Part shown: in pieces, positions 1 to 63,989 of the stretch
Numbering within the stretch: position 1 is the first letter of the stretch
Layout of the letters: each line of letters opens with the position of its first letter
Notes under the pieces: generated by a model
What the model saw: the letters and a program-made list of their open reading frames with translations, nothing else
Told to the model about the DNA's origin: nothing
The model's database searches: none
Made by a program: the position numbers and the translations under genes
Assembly (NCBI GenBank): GCA_038198935.1
Contig: JBBPZQ010000127.1
Coordinates: forward strand, 824-64,823
Reading direction: 5' to 3'
DNA length: 64,000 nt
From: Anaerolineae bacterium
Lineage (GTDB): Bacteria > Chloroflexota > Anaerolineae > JACRMK01

Positions 1-546
1 GCGATCAGCATCAGCGTCATCCCGCTGACACCGACTGCAACATTGCCAAGTAGTACGACGACTAATAATGTGAGCGCGAGCGCCACGCCGCGTCCGACGC
101 TTCAACCCACGAGTGCTGTGCCACCATCTGCAACGAGCGAGCCGACGCGCGACGTGACAACCACGCACACAGCCGATGCAACACGTACGCCAACTGCCAC
201 GCGCAGCGACGATAGCACGCGCGCACCCACTGCGACGCAAGCGCCACAATCCTCGCGCACGCCCGAGACAACACAAACGCCACAACCCTCACAAACGCCC
301 AAACCAACACAAGAACCATCGCAGTCACCGCAGCCAACACAGACGCCCAAACCGACACAAGAACCATCGCAGACGCCGCAGCCGACACAATCGCCCAAGC
401 CAACGCAGACGCAAGCGCCAACGCAAACACCACAAGCGACGCAAACCCAGAAGCCAACGCAGACACCCGAGCCAACGCGCACTTCGACCCCAGTCACACC
501 GACGCGCACGCCAGAGCCGACGCGCATACAAACGGCGACGCGGTAG
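1..546 (+). CDS. 3' end of a CDS entering the window; Pro/Thr/Gln-rich low-complexity C-terminal region built from about 48-nt tandem units (TPKPTQEPSQSPQPTQ)
   Basis: Reading frame open from nt 1 with no upstream stop; track ORF 43..546; repeated 16-aa units; stop TAG at 544-546. Confidence 0.5.
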   Translation, partial: AISISVIPLTPTATLPSSTTTNNVSASATPRPTLQPTSAVPPSATSEPTRDVTTTHTADATRTPTATRSDDSTRAPTATQAPQSSRTPETTQTPQPSQTPKPTQEPSQSPQPTQTPKPTQEPSQTPQPTQSPKPTQTQAPTQTPQATQTQKPTQTPEPTRTSTPVTPTRTPEPTRIQTATR

Positions 547-3750: not shown

Positions 3751-4066
3751 TAACGGCGATGATGGAAACGAGTAGCATCTGACGATCTGGCCAGCGAGTC
3801 TGGAATGGTGCAAGCCAGACACAGAGCGTGGACGCGAAAATCCTTCCGGAGCCACTGGGCGAAACAGTGCTGAGTGCTGAGTCCTGAGTATGAACTCCCG
3901 ACTCGGAACTCAGGACTTTAATAGTCCTCGTCGGGGTCGCTCCCGTTAGCAACGCGCGAGCATGATAGTGCTCGATAAAGTGGTGATGCGCTTGCGCGTC
4001 GTCAGCTGGGTGGTACCGCGGGAATCTTTTGACTCTCGTCCCTGTTTTGGGATGAGAGTTTTTTTG
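3751..4066 (+). promoter_or_regulatory. T-box riboswitch leader (tRNA-sensing antitermination) preceding the AlaX-like gene
   Basis: Conserved T-box sequence GGGTGGTACCGCGG at about 4007-4021 overlapping the 5' side of an intrinsic terminator (gactctcgtccc-tgttttg-ggatgagagt plus T7 at about 4030-4066); Stem-I-like distal element AGCGAGUCUGGAAUGGUGCAAG at about 3795-3820; leader of about 315 nt. Confidence 0.6.
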
Positions 4067-5123: not shown

Positions 5124-5678
5124 TTGTCAAAGACATCCGCCACTAGACAGGAAAAGACAGTGATGACTCGCAGCTTGCTAATACTGGGCACGCGCACGAT
5201 GTTCGTTGCGAACATCGTACTCGCCACTGTCGCGTTCGTTGTCATTTTGAATTGGTACGATACCGGAACGTTCGACAACGGTGGATTGACTTCAATTGGT
5301 GGACTGACTTCGATTGCGATTAGCGGCGTTTTGATCGGCATGCTTGCACTGGCGTTTGAGGAATGGGTTTCCAAAGCTCTCAACTGCTGGACAGGGCGCA
5401 GTTTTCTCAATTTCATGAGAATCATTGTTCAGAGTGTTATTTACATGGCTCTGGTTCTTGCGGTTGCAGCTAGCGCCAGTGCTGCATTCTACGAATTTAC
5501 ATCGGGAAGAGGCTTACTCACCAGCATCCTAATGTTCGTGCATCTTCCAGTACTTGTACTGTTTTATGCAATTCTCCTGATTCCATTTGGAATCGGTGTT
5601 GGTATCCTCAACGGACTTTTACTCCGGTGGAACCATCTTTTGCAGTTGGAAAACGCACGAAGCCAGAATCATAGTTGA
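5124..5678 (+). CDS. hypothetical polytopic membrane protein (atypically low GC)
   Basis: Four to five hydrophobic helices; AT-rich codon usage unlike neighbours; internal 18-nt tandem duplication (GGLTSIGGLTSI). Confidence 0.55.
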   Translation: MSKTSATRQEKTVMTRSLLILGTRTMFVANIVLATVAFVVILNWYDTGTFDNGGLTSIGGLTSIAISGVLIGMLALAFEEWVSKALNCWTGRSFLNFMRIIVQSVIYMALVLAVAASASAAFYEFTSGRGLLTSILMFVHLPVLVLFYAILLIPFGIGVGILNGLLLRWNHLLQLENARSQNHS

Positions 5679-5685
5679 GGTACAA

Positions 5686-8600
5686 ATGTTCAAACCCGTT
5701 TCATCTCAAGTGAAGTATCCAGAACTGGAAGAGCGTGTGTTGCAGTTCTGGAAGCAGAACGACACGTTCAAGAAGTCCATGCAGTTGCGTGAGCAGAACG
5801 AGCACTACGTCTTCTTCGAGGGGCCACCGACGGCGAACGGTCGCCCTGGTCTGCATCACGTGCTCGCGCGCGTGTTCAAAGACTTGATGCCGCGCTATCA
5901 CACGATGAAAGGCAAATACGTCCTGCGCAAGGGCGGCTGGGATACGCACGGCTTGCCCGTCGAACTGGAAGTTGAGAAGAAGATTGGCTCGCGCGGCAAG
6001 CAGGACATCGAGAAGTTCGGTATCGCCGAGTTTAATCGCTTGTGTCGGCAGTCGGTGTGGGAGTATGTGCAAGAGTGGGAGCGCATGACCGACCGCATCG
6101 GCTTCTGGGTGGACACGGAGCACGCCTACATCACTTACGACAACTCGTATATCGAGTCGGGCTGGTGGATACTCAGGTCACTTTGGGATCGCGCGCTGCT
6201 GTTCAAGAATTACAAGGTGACGATGCACTGCCCACGCTGCTCGACCACACTCTCCGATGCAGAGGTCGCGCTCGGCTATAAAGACAACGTCGAAGACCCG
6301 TCGGTGTGGGTGAAGTTTAAAGTAACGGACGGTCCGTTCGCGGGCGCATATCTGCTCGCGTGGACGACGACGCCGTGGACTCTGCCCGCGAACGTCGCGC
6401 TCGCGCTCAAGGGCGACGCCGACTATGCGCTCGTTCGAGTCGGCGACGAAAAGTATTTGCTCGCGCAGGCGCGCGTGAACGACGTGTTCGATACAGATGT
6501 ACGCCTGCTGCAGACGATGCGCGGCGCAGACCTTGTGGGCACGCGCTACGAAAATCTGTATTCGGCTGTGCCCGCCAAAGGCGAGACGCCCAACATGACC
6601 AACGCGTACACGGTCATCAGTGACGAGACAGTCACGCTCGAAGACGGCACGGGCATCGTGCACATCGCGCCCGCGTACGGAGACTTGGAAGTAGGACGGC
6701 GTCACCACCTGCCGACGCTCTTCTCGGTTGACCTGAGTGGTCACCTGATGCCTGAGTTCGGCGAGGAACTGGGCGGCAATAAGTGGTTCAAGGAAGCCGA
6801 CAAAGACATCGCGCGCAACTTGCGCAAGCGCGGACTGCTGCTCAAAGAATCGCGCGTGCATCACTCGTACCCGTTCTGCTGGCGCTGCGATTCGCCACTG
6901 CTCTATTATGCCAAATCGTCGTGGTACATCCGCACGACAGCGGTGAAAGATCGCCTGCTGGCCGCGAACGACGAAATCAATTGGTATCCGCCGCACATCC
7001 AGCATGGGCGCTTCGGCAACTGGCTAGAGAACAACGTGGACTGGGCGCTCTCGCGCGAGCGCTATTGGGGCACGCCGCTGCCCATCTGGCAGTGCGAGCA
7101 GTGCGGCGCGTATGCGTGTGTCGGCTCGGTGAAGGAATTGCGCGAGCGTGCGCTTAACGCCACCGACGTGAATTGGGATGAGATGGACTTGCACCGTCCG
7201 TGGATTGATGCGGTCAAACTGAAATGCGACGAGTGCGGCAATGTGATGGATCGCATGCCCGACGTGCTCGACTGCTGGTTCGATTCGGGCGCGATGCCGT
7301 ACGCGCAGTGGCACTACCCGTTCGAGAATCAAGATATGTTCGAGGATCAGTTCCCCGCAAACTTCATCTGCGAGGCGATTGACCAGACGCGCGGCTGGTT
7401 CTACTCGCTGCACGCGCTGGGCGTGTTGATGAAGGACACACCTGTTTACAAAAACGTGATGGTGCTCGGCCACCTTCAGGATACATCGGGCAAGAAGATG
7501 TCGAAGTCGCTCGGCAACGTGATTGACCCGTGGCACATCCTGAACACCTACGGCGCCGACCCGCTGCGTTGGTATCTGTATCGCACGACAGCGCTCGGCA
7601 ACCCGTATCGCTTCAACGAGCACACGCTCGCGCGTGAGGTTGTGTCCGGCGTGTTCAATACGCTGTGGAACACGTACTCTTTCTTCGTGATGTATGCGAA
7701 TATTGACGGGTGGAGTCCGAGCCAACCCCCACCCCAGCCCTCCCCCGTTTCACAGGGGAGGGAGCAGACGCGCACGGAGGACTCCCTTCTCCTGCGCAGC
7801 GGGGGAAGGGTCGGGGATGGGGGTTCGTCCGCACTCGACCGCTGGATTCTCTCCGAACTGCACACCCTCATCGCGGACGTGGATGACGACCTCGCGCAGT
7901 ACGAAATCACCGATGCGGTGCGGCGCGTGGAAGCGTTTGTCGAGGTCTTGTCGAATTGGTATGTGCGCCGCTCGCGCCGCCGCTTCTGGAAGACAACGAC
8001 GGATGCGGATAAGCGTTCTGCCTACGCGACGCTATACGAGTGCTTGGTCACGCTCGCAAAATTGATGGCACCATTCACGCCATTTGTGGCGGAGGAGATT
8101 TATCAGAACCTCGTGCGGAGCGTGGATACGAGCGCGCCTGAGTCGGTGCATCACGCCGACTTCCCGCGCGCCGACACGAGCAAGCTGGACGAGCAGTTGA
8201 TGACCAACACGCGGTTGGTGATGCGCCTCGCTTCGCTCGGACTTGCCGCGCGCAAGCAGGCGAACCTAAAGGTACGTCAGCCGCTCGCTGAAGCGCTGGT
8301 GGTCGTGCCCAGCGCCGACGAGCGCGGCGCGCTGCAAGCGCTCAGCGACCAACTGGCGGAAGAGTGGAACGTCAAGGTGGTGCGCGTCGCGGAATCGTCG
8401 AGTGATGTCGCAGATTTGAAGTTGAATCCATTGCCCGCGAAACTGGGCCCGAAGTTCGGCGCAAAGTTCGGCGCAGTACGGCGGGCGCTGCTCGCGCACG
8501 AAGACGACCACGCACTGAAGTTGCAGCAAGGCGAGCGTGTGCACGTGCAGTTGAACGGCGAGACTCACGAGGTCTTGCCCGAAGAGGTCGAGGTCAAACT

Positions 8601-8970
8601 CACGCCGAAGCAGGGCTGGGCGCTGACCAATGATACGCAGTACGTCGTCGCGCTCTCGACCACGCTGACGCCGTCGCTCAAGCGCGAGGGTGTCGCGCGC
8701 GAGTTGGTGCGCCAGTACAACGATTTGCGCAAGAGCGCGGGCTTCCGCGTCGAAGACCTCATGCGTGCGACATGGAACGGTAATGGAGAACTTGAACAAG
8801 TTTTCAGTGAGTTCGGCGACTACATCAAGCAGGAGACGCTTGCTACCGAACTCGTGCGCGCCGACGATGTGCCACAAGGCGTGACCAGTGGCACGCTCAA
8901 ACTCGACGAGGGTGAAGTGTTACTGAGCGTACGACCAGCGGGCGCAAGGGTGAAAGAGACACAACGCTAA
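5686..8970 (+). CDS. ileS: isoleucine--tRNA ligase
   Basis: Class I aaRS; HIGH-like PTANGRPGLHH, KMSKS, editing domain, zinc motifs; track ORF 5587..8970, start refined to MFKPVSS. Confidence 0.95.
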   Translation: MFKPVSSQVKYPELEERVLQFWKQNDTFKKSMQLREQNEHYVFFEGPPTANGRPGLHHVLARVFKDLMPRYHTMKGKYVLRKGGWDTHGLPVELEVEKKIGSRGKQDIEKFGIAEFNRLCRQSVWEYVQEWERMTDRIGFWVDTEHAYITYDNSYIESGWWILRSLWDRALLFKNYKVTMHCPRCSTTLSDAEVALGYKDNVEDPSVWVKFKVTDGPFAGAYLLAWTTTPWTLPANVALALKGDADYALVRVGDEKYLLAQARVNDVFDTDVRLLQTMRGADLVGTRYENLYSAVPAKGETPNMTNAYTVISDETVTLEDGTGIVHIAPAYGDLEVGRRHHLPTLFSVDLSGHLMPEFGEELGGNKWFKEADKDIARNLRKRGLLLKESRVHHSYPFCWRCDSPLLYYAKSSWYIRTTAVKDRLLAANDEINWYPPHIQHGRFGNWLENNVDWALSRERYWGTPLPIWQCEQCGAYACVGSVKELRERALNATDVNWDEMDLHRPWIDAVKLKCDECGNVMDRMPDVLDCWFDSGAMPYAQWHYPFENQDMFEDQFPANFICEAIDQTRGWFYSLHALGVLMKDTPVYKNVMVLGHLQDTSGKKMSKSLGNVIDPWHILNTYGADPLRWYLYRTTALGNPYRFNEHTLAREVVSGVFNTLWNTYSFFVMYANIDGWSPSQPPPQPSPVSQGREQTRTEDSLLLRSGGRVGDGGSSALDRWILSELHTLIADVDDDLAQYEITDAVRRVEAFVEVLSNWYVRRSRRRFWKTTTDADKRSAYATLYECLVTLAKLMAPFTPFVAEEIYQNLVRSVDTSAPESVHHADFPRADTSKLDEQLMTNTRLVMRLASLGLAARKQANLKVRQPLAEALVVVPSADERGALQALSDQLAEEWNVKVVRVAESSSDVADLKLNPLPAKLGPKFGAKFGAVRRALLAHEDDHALKLQQGERVHVQLNGETHEVLPEEVEVKLTPKQGWALTNDTQYVVALSTTLTPSLKREGVARELVRQYNDLRKSAGFRVEDLMRATWNGNGELEQVFSEFGDYIKQETLATELVRADDVPQGVTSGTLKLDEGEVLLSVRPAGARVKETQR
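7725..7826. repeat. GC-rich palindromic element inserted in frame within ileS (family copy A)
   Basis: cccccaccccagccctcccccg-tttcaca-ggggagggag ... cccttctcc-tgcgcag-cgggggaaggg-tcggggatggggg; nested inverted repeats; encodes SQPPPQPSPVSQGREQTRTEDSLLLRSGGRVGDGG. Confidence 0.7.
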
Positions 8971-31140: not shown

Positions 31141-32145
31141 CTACAGCAGCGCACGTACTTTCGTGAAAGCGTCCAGTAGGCGGGTGCGCTCGTCAGGCGC
31201 CAACGACTCGCGTGAAAGTTTGCGCGCCTCGCTCCACAAACCGAGCCGAATGATCGCGCGAACGAGCGCGACATACTGGGGCGAATGAAACTTATGAAAG
31301 TAGCGCACGCGACTGCGCCACTTGGCAACGAACATCGCGTGGCGGAACTGGCGCGTGGCTTGCCCTTCGTGATGTACGATGCGCGCGCGCGGCTCGCACC
31401 AGATTTGCCAGCTAGCCCGTTTGATGCGCCGACACCAGTCCACTTCTTCGACGTACATGAAGTACGCCTCGTCCATCAAGCCGACCTGCTCAATCACGTC
31501 GCGCCTCGCGAGCATGCACGCGCCGAGTGGATGATCAATCTCGAACGGTGTGTTGCGTTGTGGGTAGCGTCCGTTCAGGCGCGAATTGATCAAGCGCCCA
31601 TGCAGCGGAAAAAAATCGAAAATGGTTTGCGCCAGGCCAGGGAAGCGAAACGCCGAATGCTGAAAGCGTCCATCCGCAAACGTCAATTGCGCGCCAACGA
31701 CGCCCGCGCGCGGGTGTGCTCGTATAAAGCGTAACAGCGTTACAACCGCATCGGGCTGCACTTCCGTGTCGGGATTGAGGAGCAGAATGTATTCGGGTAA
31801 TCCACCCTCACCCCGGCCCTCTCCCTGCAAGGGAGTGGGCCGGGGTGAGGGCTGCCCCCTAAACCCCAACTCCCGCAAAGCCACGTTGTTCGCTGCCGCG
31901 AATCCTCGATTACTGTCGAGCGCGATCACGCGCACACACGGAAACTCGTCACGCACCATCGCGGCACTGCCGTCGCTCGACGCATTGTCCACGACGATAG
32001 GTTGCGGCGCGACGCCCTCGCTTGCCAACAGCGCGCTTAGGCATCGGCGCAGCAACTCGCGCGTGTTATAGCTGACGATGATGACGGGAAGATGTTCTTG
32101 ACCGCCGCTTGCCGACTGCCGTCTGCCGTCCATCTCAGAACCCAA
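31141..32145 (-). CDS. family 2 glycosyltransferase carrying an in-frame palindromic element
   Basis: VIIVSYNTRELL...VVDNASSDGS; insertion encodes RGQPSPRPTPLQGEGRGEGGLPE. Confidence 0.8.
   Translation of the reverse strand: MGSEMDGRRQSASGGQEHLPVIIVSYNTRELLRRCLSALLASEGVAPQPIVVDNASSDGSAAMVRDEFPCVRVIALDSNRGFAAANNVALRELGFRGQPSPRPTPLQGEGRGEGGLPEYILLLNPDTEVQPDAVVTLLRFIRAHPRAGVVGAQLTFADGRFQHSAFRFPGLAQTIFDFFPLHGRLINSRLNGRYPQRNTPFEIDHPLGACMLARRDVIEQVGLMDEAYFMYVEEVDWCRRIKRASWQIWCEPRARIVHHEGQATRQFRHAMFVAKWRSRVRYFHKFHSPQYVALVRAIIRLGLWSEARKLSRESLAPDERTRLLDAFTKVRALL
31802..31870. repeat. GC-rich palindromic element, in frame within GT2 gene (family copy B)
   Basis: ccaccctcaccccggccc-tctccctgcaagggag-tgggccggggtgaggg, near-perfect palindrome. 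Confidence 0.7.
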
Positions 32146-38844: not shown

Positions 38845-40746
38845 CTACGGCGTTACTCGCAGCGCGTCGCTGCCGTCTTCCAGTTTCAGCCGCTCGCCGC
38901 TGCGCGCATCGTACAGACCCACTTCAATTCGTGAGACATTGGCCTCAGACGCGAGGTAGTGAATGTCCTTCACGATCTCGCCTACCTCCCACTGCGTCGT
39001 CGGCATGAAGCCATTCGCAGGCGGGCTGTCGTGCTGGCCCACCAGCGTTCCGTTCGCAGCGAGCGCGTGCACGAACACAGTGTAGTTGGTGACGAGCGGC
39101 GTGCCTGCCTTCCACCACAACGTCACGCGCAGCGCGCGCGCGCCCCACGCGCGCTCCGTTGGCTGATAGGCTCCCTCGGCGTCGGCATCCGCAATCTCGT
39201 AACCGAGTAAGTGAATCGTCTGAGAAAATAGTTGATCGCGCATGTGCGCGATCACGGGCTCGTCCGTGTAGCGCAGCAACTTGTAGTCGCACGCATCGCC
39301 GATCAGTATATAGTCTGGTCGCGCGAGAAATTGGTTGAGTGCGTGCGGCACTTCGAGCGGACGGAACGGCGTCCAATTGTTGTGGCCGTCGCTCAGGTCA
39401 ACACGACCGTCGAGCACGACATACTCGGCCGTCGGCTCGCCCAGCGATGGAAACACATTTAGCGCGCGGCGATGCGCGAGGTGCGGCAGCAGATTGTCCT
39501 GCGCGCTGATGGATGCGTTCGGCGGCACGAGCGCCAGCACACGCTGCGCGCAAGCCCGGCGTGCGCTCACGTCGAAACGCATCGGCGCGAACTCGCGCGC
39601 GAAAGGACCAACACTCCACAACCAATACGACAAGCCGCCCAACAGCAGCAGCGCAACCGTCATCGCGCGTGCCAATTGGCGCGGGGCAGAGGCAATCGCC
39701 ATTGAAGTCGCGACGAATAGAATCGGCAGCAGTGGCGCGACATACCAAGCCTGCAACTGCGATACGCTCTGCTTATCGCTCAACAACAAATACGCGAAGA
39801 CGGGCAGCGCCACTGCGAATAAACTCGGCGCAAGCACCGGCAAGAACGCAAGCGGCAGCAGCACGCGCGCGACGGCGATAATCTTTGGCGCGGAGAGGTA
39901 GCGCGACACGAGCAGCAGCGGATCGGTGAGCAGACGCACGATACCTTGTGTTGGCGTTGGCGCGATGTCACCATAGCGATCCTGCCAATGCGAGATAGCA
40001 TCGGGCAGCATGCTCGGCAGTATGCCCCACACGAACACGAGCCATGCAACGGCGACGACGATCAGCAACATGCCCGCTCGCACAGCGTGCGGCTTGACTA
40101 CGAGCATGTACACGCCGACCGCCGCAACCACAATGGCGAGTTCTTCTTTGACGACGAGCGCCGCTAAAAGCAGAGCGAAGACGGAAGGCGAATGACGTAG
40201 GCGCGCTACGTCCGCCGTCCGCGGTCCGTCGTCGGTGGTTCGTCGCGCAAGCAACCACAGCGCGAACGCCATGAGCGGCGCGGCGAGCGCGATCTCGTGG
40301 AACTCACTCAGTGCGACGCCAAGCAGCGCAGGATTGAGATACAGTGCGAGCAGTGTGAACACGGCGAGGCGCGGATGACGCTCGCGCACAAGCAGGTAAC
40401 ATGGCACGACGCTCAGCGCGAGCGCGAGTGCCTGCGCAATCAGCAACATGCGCGGGTCCGACCACAAGCGGTAGAGTAGCGCGACGGCAATCAATGCGGG
40501 CGAGAAGTGATCGGCGAGGAAGATTTCGGGCTTGTCGGGCAGGTCGTTAACGAAGGGACGACCTTGAGAGGTGTTCCACACGACGTTATCGAAGTACGCC
40601 ATGTCGAAGGCGTGCGTGTGAAACGAGTCGTGCTGGCGCACCGCAAGCGCGGACGCGAACACGACATACGAGAGGAAGAGCACAACGGGTGCGATGCGCC
40701 ACGCGACGCCGAGTTGGCCCGCGCGCAGAGACGAATCGCGTCTCAC
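38845..40746 (-). CDS. DUF2079-like polytopic membrane protein with C-terminal beta-domain homologous to GT-C repeats
   Basis: HAFDMAYFDNVVWNTSQG N-terminal motif; at least 10 TM; C-terminal LRVTLWWKAGTPLVTNYTVFVHALA... matches repeat 3 of the 1008-aa protein. Confidence 0.6.
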   Translation of the reverse strand: MRRDSSLRAGQLGVAWRIAPVVLFLSYVVFASALAVRQHDSFHTHAFDMAYFDNVVWNTSQGRPFVNDLPDKPEIFLADHFSPALIAVALLYRLWSDPRMLLIAQALALALSVVPCYLLVRERHPRLAVFTLLALYLNPALLGVALSEFHEIALAAPLMAFALWLLARRTTDDGPRTADVARLRHSPSVFALLLAALVVKEELAIVVAAVGVYMLVVKPHAVRAGMLLIVVAVAWLVFVWGILPSMLPDAISHWQDRYGDIAPTPTQGIVRLLTDPLLLVSRYLSAPKIIAVARVLLPLAFLPVLAPSLFAVALPVFAYLLLSDKQSVSQLQAWYVAPLLPILFVATSMAIASAPRQLARAMTVALLLLGGLSYWLWSVGPFAREFAPMRFDVSARRACAQRVLALVPPNASISAQDNLLPHLAHRRALNVFPSLGEPTAEYVVLDGRVDLSDGHNNWTPFRPLEVPHALNQFLARPDYILIGDACDYKLLRYTDEPVIAHMRDQLFSQTIHLLGYEIADADAEGAYQPTERAWGARALRVTLWWKAGTPLVTNYTVFVHALAANGTLVGQHDSPPANGFMPTTQWEVGEIVKDIHYLASEANVSRIEVGLYDARSGERLKLEDGSDALRVTP

Positions 40747-43562
40747 TTCGCCTCGTCAGTTGGTTGAACTTGAATCCACTCGACCGCGCCCGCCACCGTC
40801 GGCGACGTGATGCGCTCGCCAATCGAGACGATGGCAGGACGGATGGGCGATGCATCTTCGCGGATGATGATGTTCTCGCCCGGCACCGTGATATAGCGAA
40901 CGAAGGCGTGGCTCGATCGCCAACCAACCGGTAGTTTGGAGCCTTCCGATTTCAATGCCATTGCCAATCTTAAGCTCGCACTCAGTGATGCCTCGTCGCG
41001 AACTGCCAACGCAACATTGTGGAACTTTTTATCGTGTTCCAGAAACTGCGCTAATCTGTCCGCTTCATTGGAAGACGCAAAGGTATCAAAATGATCTACA
41101 TAGTCCGCTGAGTTAATTCCTGTGATGAATGCGAGCAGATTGTATCCACGTTGATTCGGCGAGCGATCCTCTCCATCAATCCAGATATGAGCGAAATCGC
41201 CAACTTCTTCACCTGCACTTTTGACGACAACGAAACGATATGAATCAGGTTGACCGGTTTCACTTGGCAAATACCAAGTCGAGAACAGGGACGTCCATCG
41301 CAATGTCAACTCATTTAATCCCTCTGGCGTCCCTTGCATTTTAATCTGCACTCCATAATCCTTCGTGCCTTTCTGCAACGCAAACGAACCTGCCGGCCCA
41401 CCATTGACCAGTACGGTTAATTTCTGTCCTTCATCTGGCACGGTCACTCGCAGTGTGAGCACGACATCGGTATCCTGCTTCGGCATTAGCAGCCGCGTCT
41501 CATTGCGCTGCGCCCAAACGCGCTGCTCGCCCAACTCGCCCCAGCCGTCGGCGAAGTAAAGTCGCGCCATTGGCGACTTTGGATCAACCCCCACCCCTGC
41601 CCTTCCCCGCTGCGCAGGGGAGGGAGAGAGCCGATAGAGTCGCGTGCCGTCTGCATCGCGCCACAACTTGAGATCAGGCAGCACCGCTTCGAGCCACGGC
41701 TGCACTTTGCCACCGGCTTGCGCGCGCAGCACGATGTAGCGCACGTTGAAGAAGCGCATCACCTCGGGCGCGTACTGCTTGTCCTGCGCGAGCGTCGCCG
41801 CGTCGAGGTCGTGGCCCGTTTCGAGCGCGATGAGCGAATTGATGAGCGGCGCTTCGGTGAAGTATTGAAATTTCAATTCAGGGTTGCGGCTGGTGTTGCC
41901 GCTTAACATGCGCTTCTCGTGCACAGTCTGATAAAACTGGGACAGCATAAACACCTTGTCGAGCGTGCCCGTCACGCGGAAACTGTTGCGCCAGTCGAGC
42001 GGAATTTCGAGGACGGCGAAATCGCCGGGCTCATTGCGAATCTCGTCGTAGAACGACGGCGCGCGATAATCGGAGAGCGGCAAAACTGAAAAATGCTCAA
42101 CGAGTATTAGGAAGGAAATTAGGGAAGATAAAAGGAGATTAGGGGAAATCAATGCGTGCCCTTTATTTCTCTTATCTCCCCTAATCTCCCCTAATTTCCT
42201 CGCTTTCACGAGCAGATACTGAACACCGAACGCAACGAGCACCGCAACTCCGAGCGTGATCATCACCGAGTAGCGACTTGGATAGCGATTGCCTTTGAAA
42301 AATGGCAAGACTTGGAAGACGGCGAAGGGAAGCGGGATCGGAAACGCATTGCCATTCACTCGCAATTCGGGTCCGAGCGCGATGACGGCGAACGCGAGCG
42401 TCGTGACGCTCCAAAATTTCGCGAGCGTGTAGCGCCGATACACCCGCGCGCCGATGAGCGCAAGCGCCAGCGTCAGCCAGCCGACGAACACAAAGTTGAT
42501 GTAGGGAAACTCAAACCAAGTATCCAACCAGCCAACTATCGGATTCAACTTGCTCGGCACGAAGAAGCCAATCACGTCCGCTGAGAACGCATCTGCAAAG
42601 CCGGAGCCTTGCACGAGATAGTCGCCTTCGACGCGCAACTCTTGGATCATCGGCACGATGATCGGCGCGAAGCCGACGACGAATACGATGGCGACGAGCG
42701 CCAGCGCGAGCGTCATGCGCCAGAACGATTGCCGCGCACGCCAGTGCCACAGCCAGAAGAAAAATGTGAACACAATTAAAAACGAAGCGAAGGTGAATTC
42801 GGCATAGGCTTGCAGCAACAAGAACGTTGCGGCGAGGATGGCGTGACGAGCGGGGAGAAGCGAGTGGCGAGATGTCCTGTGCCGCAGGCATTCGCCTGCT
42901 TTGCGCGCAATTGCGCGCGGCACAGGATGCGCGAGTGGCGTGCGGTGAGTGGCGAACAAGTCAGAACGCAGCTTGAACAGGTACAGCACGTAGAATGGAA
43001 TCCACTGCGACGATGCTATGTTGAACTGGCCCAGCGAGGCATAGAGCATCTTGTTCGACGAGAAGGCAAACACAATGCCTGCGATAAACGCCGCCCAATC
43101 TCCAGTCTCCAGTCCCCAGTCCGCAATCCCTAACTCTTCAACCAACAGAAACATTCCATATCCGCACAACACAAACGACGACAACAACAGCATGTTCGCC
43201 GCAGGCACGAGCCCGAACACGGCTTGCAACGGGAGCGAGAGCGCGTCGTTCAGCAGCGTGAGCGTGTAGAAGACGAGGTTGATGCCAATCGGATAGAACA
43301 TGAAGTCGGTCGTGAGCGGCGAGGTGTGCAGATCGAGCAGCGCATGTTTGAACCACCACAAGTTCCATGTCAGCGCGGGGTCGTCGCTGCCATCGCCGAC
43401 GACGTGCGTCGTGAAATTCGCGGCGAGGGGCCAAGTCAGCACCAGTGCGAGCAGAGTATATGCGCCGAGCACGAGCAAATGTTTTCGCACGCAGCAGACT
43501 ATACCACAGAGACATATTTGGGCTAAACACTGTGCGCCAATTAGTGAACAAAGCACCGACAT
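40743..43562 (-). CDS. large polytopic membrane protein, probable glycosyltransferase/YfhO-like, carrying two in-frame palindromic insertions
   Basis: At least 12 TM N-terminal half, large C-terminal soluble domain; start overlaps downstream-gene stop. Confidence 0.55.
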   Translation of the reverse strand: MSVLCSLIGAQCLAQICLCGIVCCVRKHLLVLGAYTLLALVLTWPLAANFTTHVVGDGSDDPALTWNLWWFKHALLDLHTSPLTTDFMFYPIGINLVFYTLTLLNDALSLPLQAVFGLVPAANMLLLSSFVLCGYGMFLLVEELGIADWGLETGDWAAFIAGIVFAFSSNKMLYASLGQFNIASSQWIPFYVLYLFKLRSDLFATHRTPLAHPVPRAIARKAGECLRHRTSRHSLLPARHAILAATFLLLQAYAEFTFASFLIVFTFFFWLWHWRARQSFWRMTLALALVAIVFVVGFAPIIVPMIQELRVEGDYLVQGSGFADAFSADVIGFFVPSKLNPIVGWLDTWFEFPYINFVFVGWLTLALALIGARVYRRYTLAKFWSVTTLAFAVIALGPELRVNGNAFPIPLPFAVFQVLPFFKGNRYPSRYSVMITLGVAVLVAFGVQYLLVKARKLGEIRGDKRNKGHALISPNLLLSSLISFLILVEHFSVLPLSDYRAPSFYDEIRNEPGDFAVLEIPLDWRNSFRVTGTLDKVFMLSQFYQTVHEKRMLSGNTSRNPELKFQYFTEAPLINSLIALETGHDLDAATLAQDKQYAPEVMRFFNVRYIVLRAQAGGKVQPWLEAVLPDLKLWRDADGTRLYRLSPSPAQRGRAGVGVDPKSPMARLYFADGWGELGEQRVWAQRNETRLLMPKQDTDVVLTLRVTVPDEGQKLTVLVNGGPAGSFALQKGTKDYGVQIKMQGTPEGLNELTLRWTSLFSTWYLPSETGQPDSYRFVVVKSAGEEVGDFAHIWIDGEDRSPNQRGYNLLAFITGINSADYVDHFDTFASSNEADRLAQFLEHDKKFHNVALAVRDEASLSASLRLAMALKSEGSKLPVGWRSSHAFVRYITVPGENIIIREDASPIRPAIVSIGERITSPTVAGAVEWIQVQPTDEAK
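41587..41632. repeat. GC-rich palindromic element in frame (family copy C)
   Basis: cccccacccctgcccttccccgctgcgcaggggagggagagag; near-identical core to copy A; encodes SPSPAQRGRAGVGVDPKS on minus strand. Confidence 0.65.
42105..42207. repeat. second-type nested-palindrome element (cccctaatctcc / ggagattagggg units) in frame
   Basis: aggaaattaggg-aagataaaa-ggagattagggg ... cccctaatctcc-cccctaatttcct; AT-richer than host gene; encodes KARKLGEIRGDKRNKGHALISPNLLLSSLIS. Confidence 0.6.
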
Positions 43563-52526: not shown

Positions 52527-52599
52527 CTTCGGCAGTGCTGGGCAAAAACGCTGAGTGCTGCGAATTGTTACTCAGCACTCAGCACTCAGCACTCGGCAC

Positions 52600-55049
<2,450 letters not shown>

Positions 55050-55932: not shown

Positions 55933-55953
55933 AGGTCGGCAATGAAAAACAAA

Positions 55954-56013
55954 CCACGAAGACACAAAAGGCACGAAGAAATAGTAGGCTTTGTGTTCTT
56001 CGTGTCTTCGTGG
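55954..56013 (-). terminator. hairpin terminator downstream of pckA
   Basis: Perfect 12-bp stem ccacgaagacac / gtgtcttcgtgg. Confidence 0.55.
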
Positions 56014-56028
56014 CTTGCTTCTTCCTCT

Positions 56029-60491: not shown

Positions 60492-60560
60492 TGCGTGATC
60501 CGTAATTGGTGCGCGATGGTTACGGATTACGGATCACGCATCCCGCATTACGAATCACGT
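60488..60560. repeat. REP-like intergenic palindromic repeat (copy 2)
   Basis: gtaatgcgtgatccgtaat ... ttacggatcacgcat ... cgcattacgaatcacg between convergent genes. Confidence 0.6.
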
Positions 60561-63916: not shown

Positions 63917-63989
63917 GGCCCGTTCGTCTAGTGGACTAGGACGCCGCCCTCTCAAGGCAGAAACGGGGATTCGAATTCCCCACGGGCCA
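63917..63989 (+). tRNA. tRNA-Glu (anticodon CUC)
   Basis: Cloverleaf: acceptor ggcccgt/acgggcc, T-arm gggga-ttcgaat-tcccc, anticodon loop cuCUCaa, 4-nt variable loop; close to canonical tRNA-Glu; no encoded CCA. Confidence 0.8.

Follow-up and report, generated by a model that had tools for sequence, protein, structure and literature searches.

The window analysed here, a 64-kb stretch of DNA assigned to an uncultured member of the Chloroflexota, contains three GC-rich palindromic sequences within protein-coding genes: copy A in ileS, copy B in the gene of a family 2 glycosyltransferase (GT2) and copy C in the gene of a 939-aa membrane protein. In the interpretation that we favor, to which we assign a probability of roughly 0.7, the three are members of a widespread superfamily of GC-rich hairpin repeats, resembling repetitive extragenic palindromic (REP) sequences and bacterial interspersed mosaic elements (BIMEs), that have landed in permissive loops of their host proteins. 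A reading of the window from its sequence only had proposed GC-rich palindromic insertions at these sites that preserve the host frames. Such sequence is indeed present at all three, and the ileS, GT2 and 939-aa open reading frames (ORFs) run through it uninterrupted. That earlier observation is partly confirmed and its interpretation is supported, with the caveats that copy B is no more than a sister variant and that copy C is old and vertically inherited, with hardly any net gain in length. The window contains five matches to the motif CCCCWGCCCTYCCCC at up to two mismatches, whereas shuffling predicts 0.18, and none of 100 shuffles reaches five. The top matches of all three host proteins lie in metagenome-assembled genomes (MAGs) of Chloroflexota.

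Three palindromes in three host genes

The ileS gene (5686-8970, plus strand) encodes a type 2 isoleucyl-tRNA synthetase (IleRS) of 1094 aa. Its open frame extends from 5587 to 8970 (1127 aa), with the ATG at 5686 as the probable start, inferred by aligning orthologues. The protein contains the Pfam domains tRNA-synt_1, Anticodon_1 and DUF5915, matches the IleRS2 structure 8c8w of the PDB (E 6e-272) and has orthologues in Chloroflexota; its KMSKS motif and reading frame are intact. Copy A is an unstranded 102-nt head-to-head dimer at 7724-7825, so that the site had been placed correctly in the sequence-only reading, one base away from the 7725-7826 given there. Beyond what was then described, it is composed of two inverted hairpin units with outer arms of 21-23 nt. 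Unit A1 (type 1, 7724-7764, plus strand; nhmmer E 2e-8) agrees with the cross-phylum arm consensus at 21 of 21 positions and comprises a tail and 5' stem, CCCCCACCCCAG-CCCTCCCCC (7726-7746), the loop GTTTCACA (7747-7754) and the 3' stem GGGGAGGGAG (7755-7764). An unstranded spacer of 17 nt (7765-7781) separates it from unit A2 (type 2, inverted, 7782-7825, minus strand), which reads on the plus strand CTCCCTTCTCC (7782-7792), loop TGCGCAGC (7793-7800) and long arm GGGGGAAGGGTCGGGGATGGGGG (7801-7823). The A2 arm matches the type 2 partner arm found elsewhere: in metagenome contigs as well as in isolates of Lysobacteraceae, arms of this kind, GGGGGAAGG(G)TCGGG(G)ATGGGGG, accompany units of type 1. 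Because the A2 arm is thus the second arm type of the wider family, copy A is a standard dimer of types 1 and 2. Its long outer arms pair with each other into a single long hairpin, with the nested inverted repeats that had been noticed before; as RNA it folds at -78.1 kcal/mol (z -6.4 versus shuffles), and the opposite strand behaves similarly. The dimer spans 34 codons, translated as (S)QPPPQPSPVSQGREQTRTEDSLLLRSGGRVGDGG(S).

Judged from the alignment of orthologues, copy A is a true insertion. The closest orthologue (P0001, 81% identical, on the syntenic contig L001) lacks it and is 27 codons shorter at the loop, with AEKSGRGPL where the window protein has 36 residues; in the DNA, the two differ by a single 81-nt block. 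More distant orthologues (P0004-P0007, 70-78% identical) have loops of 7-14 aa, and 8c8w aligns with residues 7-680 and 715-1067 of the query and leaves out 681-714. Such an alignment had been suggested as a check on the extra loop, and the loop withstands it. Since copy A is near the consensus and absent from the nearest relative, the family seems to have been active after the two lineages split. Around the insertion, Pfam domains reach up to aa 670 on the catalytic side and start again at aa 751 on the anticodon-binding side (in the 1127-aa ORF). In an AlphaFold model built from 71 sequences, with a mean predicted local distance difference test score (pLDDT) of 89.6, the sole segment below 50 is aa 685-710, which sits between the confident helices 645-674 and 716-737. 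As model confidence is low only there, between helices, copy A is predicted to code for a disordered surface loop at the domain junction.

The same IleRS loop holds other hairpin repeats in three other Chloroflexota, at 2493-2582 of contig L245, 2138-2239 of L246 and 2499-2591 of L002. Their arms are built from tandem units of about 7 nt, (GGAGGTT)n, (ATGCAGA)n and GGGAGATAA-type, respectively. They are mutually unrelated, are all in frame and form hairpins at -35 to -43 kcal/mol. On these sequence comparisons, the loop is a recurrent landing or tolerance site, entered independently by at least four unrelated hairpin repeats, and therefore permissive. Much of the variation in its length thus seems to stem from palindromic repeats, which more generally appear to alter the length of loops regularly in these lineages.

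Copy C lies in the gene of the 939-aa membrane protein (40743-43562, minus strand), which has a C-terminal ILEI domain (Pfam), an identical protein on record (P0121) and known orthologues. It is a single type 1 unit on the plus strand (41588-41626; nhmmer E 4e-7), 88% identical to A1, with the arm CCCCCACCCCTGCCCTTCCCC (41588-41608), the loop GCTGCGCA and GGGGAGGGAG (41617-41626). The sense strand of the gene is here the G-rich strand, and the unit codes for PSPAQRGRAGVGV, about 13 aa. In a blastn alignment of A1 with copy C (E 4e-7), 37 of 42 nt are identical, and a profile made from units of other phyla detects both (E 2e-8 and E 4e-7, respectively). The two are read from opposite strands, in keeping with the claim that the elements occur in both orientations relative to the host gene. 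On its own, copy C does not fold markedly better than shuffles (z -1.65).

The segment in question, SPAQRGRAGVGV, represents a net gain of only about 3 residues versus distant orthologues. An orthologue of 66% identity has SPAERGRAGVGI at this site, and a diverged unit occupies the orthologous site in contigs L123 and L124, whose DNA stems from two independent sequencing runs. Since the 66%-identity orthologue has the unit at the same site, copy C is old and vertically inherited, having entered before the split from that relative. It matches the cross-phyla consensus at 35 of 37 nt, versus 29 of 37 for the orthologous copy in L123 (4054-4092), with host genes that are 72.5% identical in DNA. 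This asymmetry could be due to chance, to homogenization by other copies or to re-insertion at the same site.

A second palindrome, unrelated to copy C, lies in frame in the same gene at 42113-42200. Its arms consist of AT-richer tandem units of about 7 nt (AGGAAATTAGGGAAGATAAAAGGAGATTAGGGGAA and its inverse), and it codes for RKLGEIRGDKRNKGHALISPNLLLSSLIS. The segment is common to the three closest orthologues, more distant ones being about 11-25 residues shorter, and L123 has a diverged palindrome there.

Copy B is located in the GT2 gene (31141-32145, minus strand; Pfam Glycos_transf_2), for which an identical protein is recorded (P0241). It is an unstranded, near-perfect palindrome of 47 nt (31805-31851) with arms CCCTCACCCCGGCCCTCTCCC and AGGGAGTGGGCCGGGGTGAGGG around the loop TGCA, and as a DNA hairpin it reaches z -7.4. 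It codes for PSPRPTPLQGEGRGE, which makes up about 16 aa of the 22-aa loop that joins NNVALRELGF to PEYILLLNPDT. An added loop of about 25-35 aa had been expected at each site; this holds for copy A (27 codons net, 34 spanned) and fails for copies B and C. Likewise, the core supposed to be common to all three is confined to A1 and copy C: copy B has no blastn link to A or C, and its match to the profile is weak (E 0.47). Its arm nevertheless agrees with the A1 arm at 18 of 21 positions, and its stem, CCCTCTCCC/GGGAGAGGG versus CCCTCCCCC/GGGGGAGGG in type 1, is altered on both strands. A left arm identical to that of copy B occurs in a Dehalococcoidia MAG (locus L112). Because arms of the B type are found in the same genomes as type 1, at other loci and with the same clade-specific loops, copy B is a related sister variant and not a copy of the core first quoted.

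The GT2 loop that holds copy B is hypervariable, ranging from 0 to about 60 aa in homologues; the closest orthologues have 8-22 residues there, none with the palindrome. GT2 homologues also carry similar repeat-like loop inserts, seen at the peptide level only. Immediately after copy B, a C-tract stretch at 31855-31876, CCCCCTAAACCCCAACTCCCGC, looks like a degenerate unit arm; it had been included in the range first given for the element. A profile search of the 64-kb window revealed no additional copy beyond A, B and C.

A repeat family in several phyla

Further copies outside the window, which had been called for as support, are abundant. One scan covered one genome per species with the exact pattern CCCACCCCWGCCCTYCCCC-N5-10-GGGGARGGG and found at least 120 loci; this pattern ends in GGGGARGGG and the window copies in GGGGAGGGAG, so it cannot match the source genome. 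A second scan, of metagenome contigs and with the exact pattern of the window's own variant, gave at least 120 matches. The unit statistics below refer to the matches listed from both scans, and phyla are taken from record titles. As the search patterns fixed the stem sequence, the near-invariance of the stems in this sample is partly built in, and modelling of covariation was dropped for nearly invariant stems.

The basic unit is about 38-45 nt long and consists of a 12-nt C-tract tail, CCCCCACCCCAG, followed by a 9-bp hairpin, CCCTCCCCC, a loop of 4-10 nt and GGGGGAGGG. Its ends are sharp: two more C, often preceded by CA, belong to the 5' side and one more G to the 3' side, with unrelated flanks beyond. 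Accordingly, the position matrix of the flanks reads CACC-CCCACCCC at one end and GGGGAGGGG-G at the other and is random outside. Matches of the genome scan occur in Alpha-, Beta- and Gammaproteobacteria, including isolates of Dongia, Pseudoxanthomonas, Coralloluteibacterium and Azospirillum, in lineages of Desulfobacterota type, in Planctomycetota, Armatimonadota, Verrucomicrobiota, Methylomirabilota and others, and, within the Chloroflexota, in Anaerolineae, Dehalococcoidia and Candidatus Aquidulcis. Some of the MAG labels may reflect binning errors; isolates and closed chromosomes are also among the matches. Closed genomes with the family include Lysobacter CP192602.1 and Dehalococcoidia OZ242018.1 and OY762444.1, and it is also present in 5-Mb contigs of Phycisphaerales MAGs. 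In some cases a genome has multiple matches, for example six loci in one Anaerolineae MAG. The loops are mostly shared within clades (GGAGTACCA in Phycisphaerae, GCAGGC-type in Lysobacteraceae), and the arms are equal across clades. A Coralloluteibacterium isolate has the unit CCCCCACCCCAACCCTCCCCCGCTGCGCAGGGGAGGGAG, which differs from copy C, even with the loop counted, at only 3 positions (36 of 39 shared).

Units are found as singlets, as inverted dimers and in clusters. Among the matches listed, 107 units had enough flank for the search of a partner: an inverted long arm lies downstream in 14 (head-to-head, like copy A) and upstream in 25 (tail-to-tail). The partner of type 1 is a second, inverted arm type, CCCCCATCCC(A/G)ACCTTCCCCC. 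Tandem modules in which type 1 and type 2 arms alternate have a length of about 198 nt in L122 and about 98 nt in L233, and also occur in L084 and L101. In dimers elsewhere, the spacer can be as short as 4 nt or as long as about 100 nt. Among the matches listed from metagenomes, the form seen most often is a dimer of about 80-100 nt whose inverted outer arms measure 21 nt.

Among the matches listed, 14 units of 122 and 4 of 83 (about 5-11%) lie inside long ORFs with a coding-like GC content at third codon positions; the rest lie outside. Pfam domains confirm in-frame linker copies in two E2 acyltransferases (in the lipoyl/E3-binding linker), a class I aminoacyl-tRNA synthetase, a MiaB-like enzyme, an amidase and, in Candidatus Aquidulcis, a PMT_2 glycosyltransferase. 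Stop codons are absent from all six frames of the consensus unit and from five of the six frames of doublet A. Among intragenic units, most frames are seen in use, in both orientations.

Three loci (L066, L113 and L093) contain single proteins with several in-frame units, visible as repeats of the PLPASGERG- or APPPLAGEGWG-type. Judging from the translations only, these ORFs would be hydantoinase/oxoprolinase-like, helicase-like (putatively, in a MAG labelled Cardiobacterium) and oxidoreductase-like.

Viral contigs yielded only eight matches, and there is no sign that phages are a main carrier. A search of a plasmid collection with the dimer consensus gave no match, for which the low-complexity filter is possibly to blame. 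Neither the motif nor the peptide strings had a relevant match in the searchable literature, which excludes subscription journals, and the motif string is absent from PMC3733652 and its supplements. This untagged and widely distributed repeat family is new as a family, within a known type of repeat.

Relation to known repeats and possible origins

The classic case of in-frame palindromic repeats in unrelated genes, essential ones included, is that of the Rickettsia palindromic elements (RPEs; Ogata et al. 2000), as summarized in two papers (PMC10969869, PMC3733652); for RPEs and for the present repeats alike, the encoded peptides are considered to be tolerated by the host proteins in both fold and function. 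RPEs are confined to Rickettsia and, according to PMC3733652, end in CGTC. Like an RPE, copy A is an in-frame palindromic insertion that adds a peptide, namely 27 codons modelled as disordered. The RPE likeness drawn in the sequence-only reading is a fair analogy for in-frame palindromic repeats that code for loops, but does not extend to membership. With a host from the Chloroflexota and no CGTC end, the present elements are not RPEs, a separation made by description and not by alignment with RPEs. In contrast to RPEs, they are made of units of about 40 nt (about 100 nt as a dimer), are read in most frames, are mostly intergenic across the family and occur in many free-living phyla. In-frame REPs have already been reported in ORFs of several non-Rickettsia species, tRNA synthetase genes included, with 20-30 aa per dimer, and a finding outside Rickettsia is therefore not new in itself (PMC3733652). 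The REP families described there are tagged with GTAG or CGTC (Di Nocera et al. 2013, PMC3733652).

With REPs, BIMEs and REPINs, the family shares imperfect hairpin units of 20-45 nt that are, for the family at large, multicopy, dispersed and mostly extragenic, and that occur as singlets, as head-to-head and tail-to-tail inverted dimers and in clusters in which two variants alternate in orientation. In the BIMEs of E. coli, such alternating variants are represented by the Y and Z units. Target-site duplications are lacking in both cases, and a minority of copies is in frame within ORFs. The GC-rich unit forms a short hairpin palindrome, copies A and B folding far better than shuffles; 89-95% of the matches listed lie outside coding-like ORFs, while the window copies are all intragenic; and singlets, dimers and clusters with alternating variants are all represented. 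The family differs in that neither end of the unit has GTAG or CGTC, so that the stem is not marked by a terminal tag and a 12-nt C-tract tail replaces the tetranucleotide. It also differs in that no REP-associated tyrosine transposase (RAYT) is linked to it among the loci examined, and in that its arms are near-identical across several phyla. Its architecture is nearer to that of REPs and BIMEs than to that of RPEs.

The favored interpretation entails the following course of events. The units are small, non-coding GC-rich hairpins that exist as singlets, as inverted dimers with pairing long arms and as tandem clusters of alternating variants. To judge from their architecture, they most likely spread through a trans-acting enzyme that recognizes the folded single-stranded hairpin and leaves no target-site duplication, in the manner of the HUH/Y1 transposases of REPs; no such enzyme was found in the loci examined. 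In IleRS, a dimer became inserted where a linker joins the catalytic to the anticodon-binding part, at a time when the lineage had already diverged from its nearest sequenced relative. The single unit in the 939-aa membrane protein arrived before the divergence from the 66%-identity relative, and a variant palindrome lies in the hypervariable GT2 loop. Two circumstances explain their persistence: the units are nearly free of stops in any frame, giving disordered peptides rich in Pro, Ser, Gly and Arg, and selection leaves only those copies that keep the frame in tolerant loops. Their effect on the host proteins is probably neutral. The steps backed by data are the identity of the repeat, its presence or absence at the orthologous site, the position in a loop and the disorder. 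All copies in the window are intragenic, versus 5-11% in the family at large among the matches listed. One way to read this is that the lineage holds few and partly old copies, of which the genic ones would be shielded from the deletions that remove intergenic ones.

Several points weigh against this scenario. The gain in ileS length is 81 nt and the element measures 102 nt, so that host codons must have been lost at insertion or the ancestral loop must have been shorter. The view of the source lineage consists of the 64-kb window and 41 kb from three relatives, the latter with only the orthologue of copy C. Clustering of the neighbors of 122 units detected no recurrent gene family beside them except ABC ATPases, which is trivial, and what lies between unit arrays is unremarkable, namely the gene of an MMPL transporter and ORFs that have no annotation, none of them a transposase gene. 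A tblastn search with E. coli RayT in 1.5 Mb of loci detected one complete RAYT (L061, 2334-2828), which is flanked by its own GTAG-type REP and not by the GC-rich unit. The GTAG or CGTC tag of most described REPs is absent from the units. Finally, the arms, and sometimes the loop, are conserved nearly base for base across phyla. REPs do not usually show this, and it is not accounted for by selfish spread alone.

The locus with the RAYT deserves a separate remark. It belongs to a deltaproteobacterial MAG; the enzyme, 51% identical to E. coli RayT, has the GTAG-type REP (GTAGGGCGGGAAAGCGAAGCGCATCCCGCC) on both sides (2270-2900), and a GC-rich unit is present 2.2 kb away. Two REP-like families therefore coexist in one genome.

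The conservation across phyla also lies at the root of the idea that the units serve the host, as a G-quadruplex or i-motif, as a hairpin or as an RNA signal, for example a stabilizer of transcript ends, and in ileS as a pause site at the domain boundary; a shared host factor or a physical requirement would then have kept the sequence constant. The G-rich type 1 arm, GGGGGAGGGCTGGGGTGGGGG, has four G-tracts with loops of 1-2 nt and so conforms, as a sequence, to the quadruplex rule of four G-tracts of at least 3, while the type 2 arm has one GG tract. The arms are far better conserved across phyla than the loops. The stem changes are paired, from CCCTCCCCC/GGGGGAGGG to CCCTCTCCC/GGGAGAGGG or CCTTCCCCC/GGGGGAAGG, which shows that the hairpin matters. 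Copy C has stayed at 35/37 to the consensus with its orthologue at 29/37, and intragenic copies are situated at domain boundaries. That position, however, is equally expected from selection against disruptive insertions. Moreover, the units are used in both orientations and in most reading frames, their presence varies among close orthologues, their flanking genes are unrelated and no Rfam family matches them. Taken together, a function for the host seems an unlikely explanation of the family.

Small non-autonomous elements offer another comparison. Bacterial transposable elements of the miniature inverted-repeat kind (MITEs) with intragenic copies include ERIC, Correia/NEMIS, Nezha and others (reviewed in PMC10969869). 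Like them, the present repeats are small, palindromic, non-autonomous and able to fuse in frame with host ORFs, and the 21-23-nt inverted outer arms of the dimers are comparable to terminal inverted repeats. It has therefore to be considered that the dimer is the mobile entity, with its 21-nt outer arms as terminal inverted repeats, and that a related insertion sequence supplies the DDE transposase that cuts and pastes it. The size of the dimers and their palindromic form would agree with this, and so would the prevalence of dimers of about 80-100 nt with 21-nt inverted arms among the matches listed from metagenomes. MITEs, however, have target-site duplications and ends that match those of an insertion sequence, and in the loci examined neither a duplication nor a parent insertion sequence was found. 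Compared with permuted flanks, there is no excess of 2-6-nt direct repeats at 118 single units or 58 dimers. This speaks against a MITE of DDE type and would fit with single-strand transposases that recognize hairpins, such as those that move REPs. Many units are singlets whose ends are just as sharp, no transposase recurs near the units and none is bracketed by them; in the loci examined, none lies between inverted arms. A MITE of this kind is thus quite improbable. The flanks of dimers are complementary slightly above chance (mean run 1.4 versus 0.7); this fits with arms that extend 1-3 bp further and with a few insertions into pre-existing palindromes, and is too weak to build on.

That the sequences might be ordinary lineage-specific low-complexity loops, with Pro/Gly/Ser peptides coded by the C- and G-tracts of a GC-rich genome, accords with the variable length of all three sites among homologues and with the mere 3 or so residues by which copy C exceeds the segment of distant orthologues, but it is already contradicted: the likeness is in the DNA and not in the peptide, A and C being read from opposite strands, the unit including its loop recurs in other phyla with unrelated and mostly non-coding flanks, and shuffles fail to give the motif count. 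Equally implausible is a repeat misjoined into the genes of a metagenome-assembled contig, since assemblies do break at units elsewhere, many of which lie at contig ends, but the frames run on into homologous protein on both sides, two assemblies that are independent of each other, and come from separate sequencing runs, agree on the site of copy C, and the family is also found in isolate genomes and closed chromosomes.

The interpretation as REP-like hairpin repeats landed in permissive loops can be extended, tentatively, to an undescribed and untagged REP-like superfamily with arms that are near-invariant across phyla, exemplified by the 36 of 39 nt shared between a unit of a Lysobacteraceae isolate and one of the window. 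In this more speculative form, machinery that is neither RAYT nor DDE, a universal host factor or a quadruplex/i-motif constraint might be at work, and the superfamily might, across bacteria, repeatedly supply essential enzymes with inserted loops. A sequence that is near-constant in several phyla, and that comes with neither tag nor known mobilizing enzyme, raises the question of spread versus conservation. More generally, the three genes show in what way selfish or structural repeats in DNA can add loops to proteins, an aminoacyl-tRNA synthetase among them, and they extend to the Chloroflexota a picture drawn from Rickettsia and some REP-rich bacteria. For annotation, the units account for many inserts rich in Pro, Ser, Gly and Arg, for many spurious small ORFs in GC-rich genomes and for breaks of metagenome contigs.

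Other repeats and features of the window

At gathering score, Rfam recognizes in the window a single feature, a tRNA gene at 63917-63989. The hairpin of copy A has microRNA-like matches below threshold, which are meaningless in a bacterium.

Besides the elements treated above, the window has intergenic palindromes made of short tandem units (ATTCGTAATGCGTGATGCG, AGTGCTGAGTGCTGAG, ACGAAGACAC and so on) at 53558-53651, 60513-60555, 3866-3897, 52562-52593 and 55947-56020. By their position they resemble gene-end hairpins, and related arms recur far apart in the window. Finally, an ORF at 43-546 (plus strand) contains, at 233-466, a tandem array with a period of 18 nt and about 11 overlapping copies of 60-77% identity.

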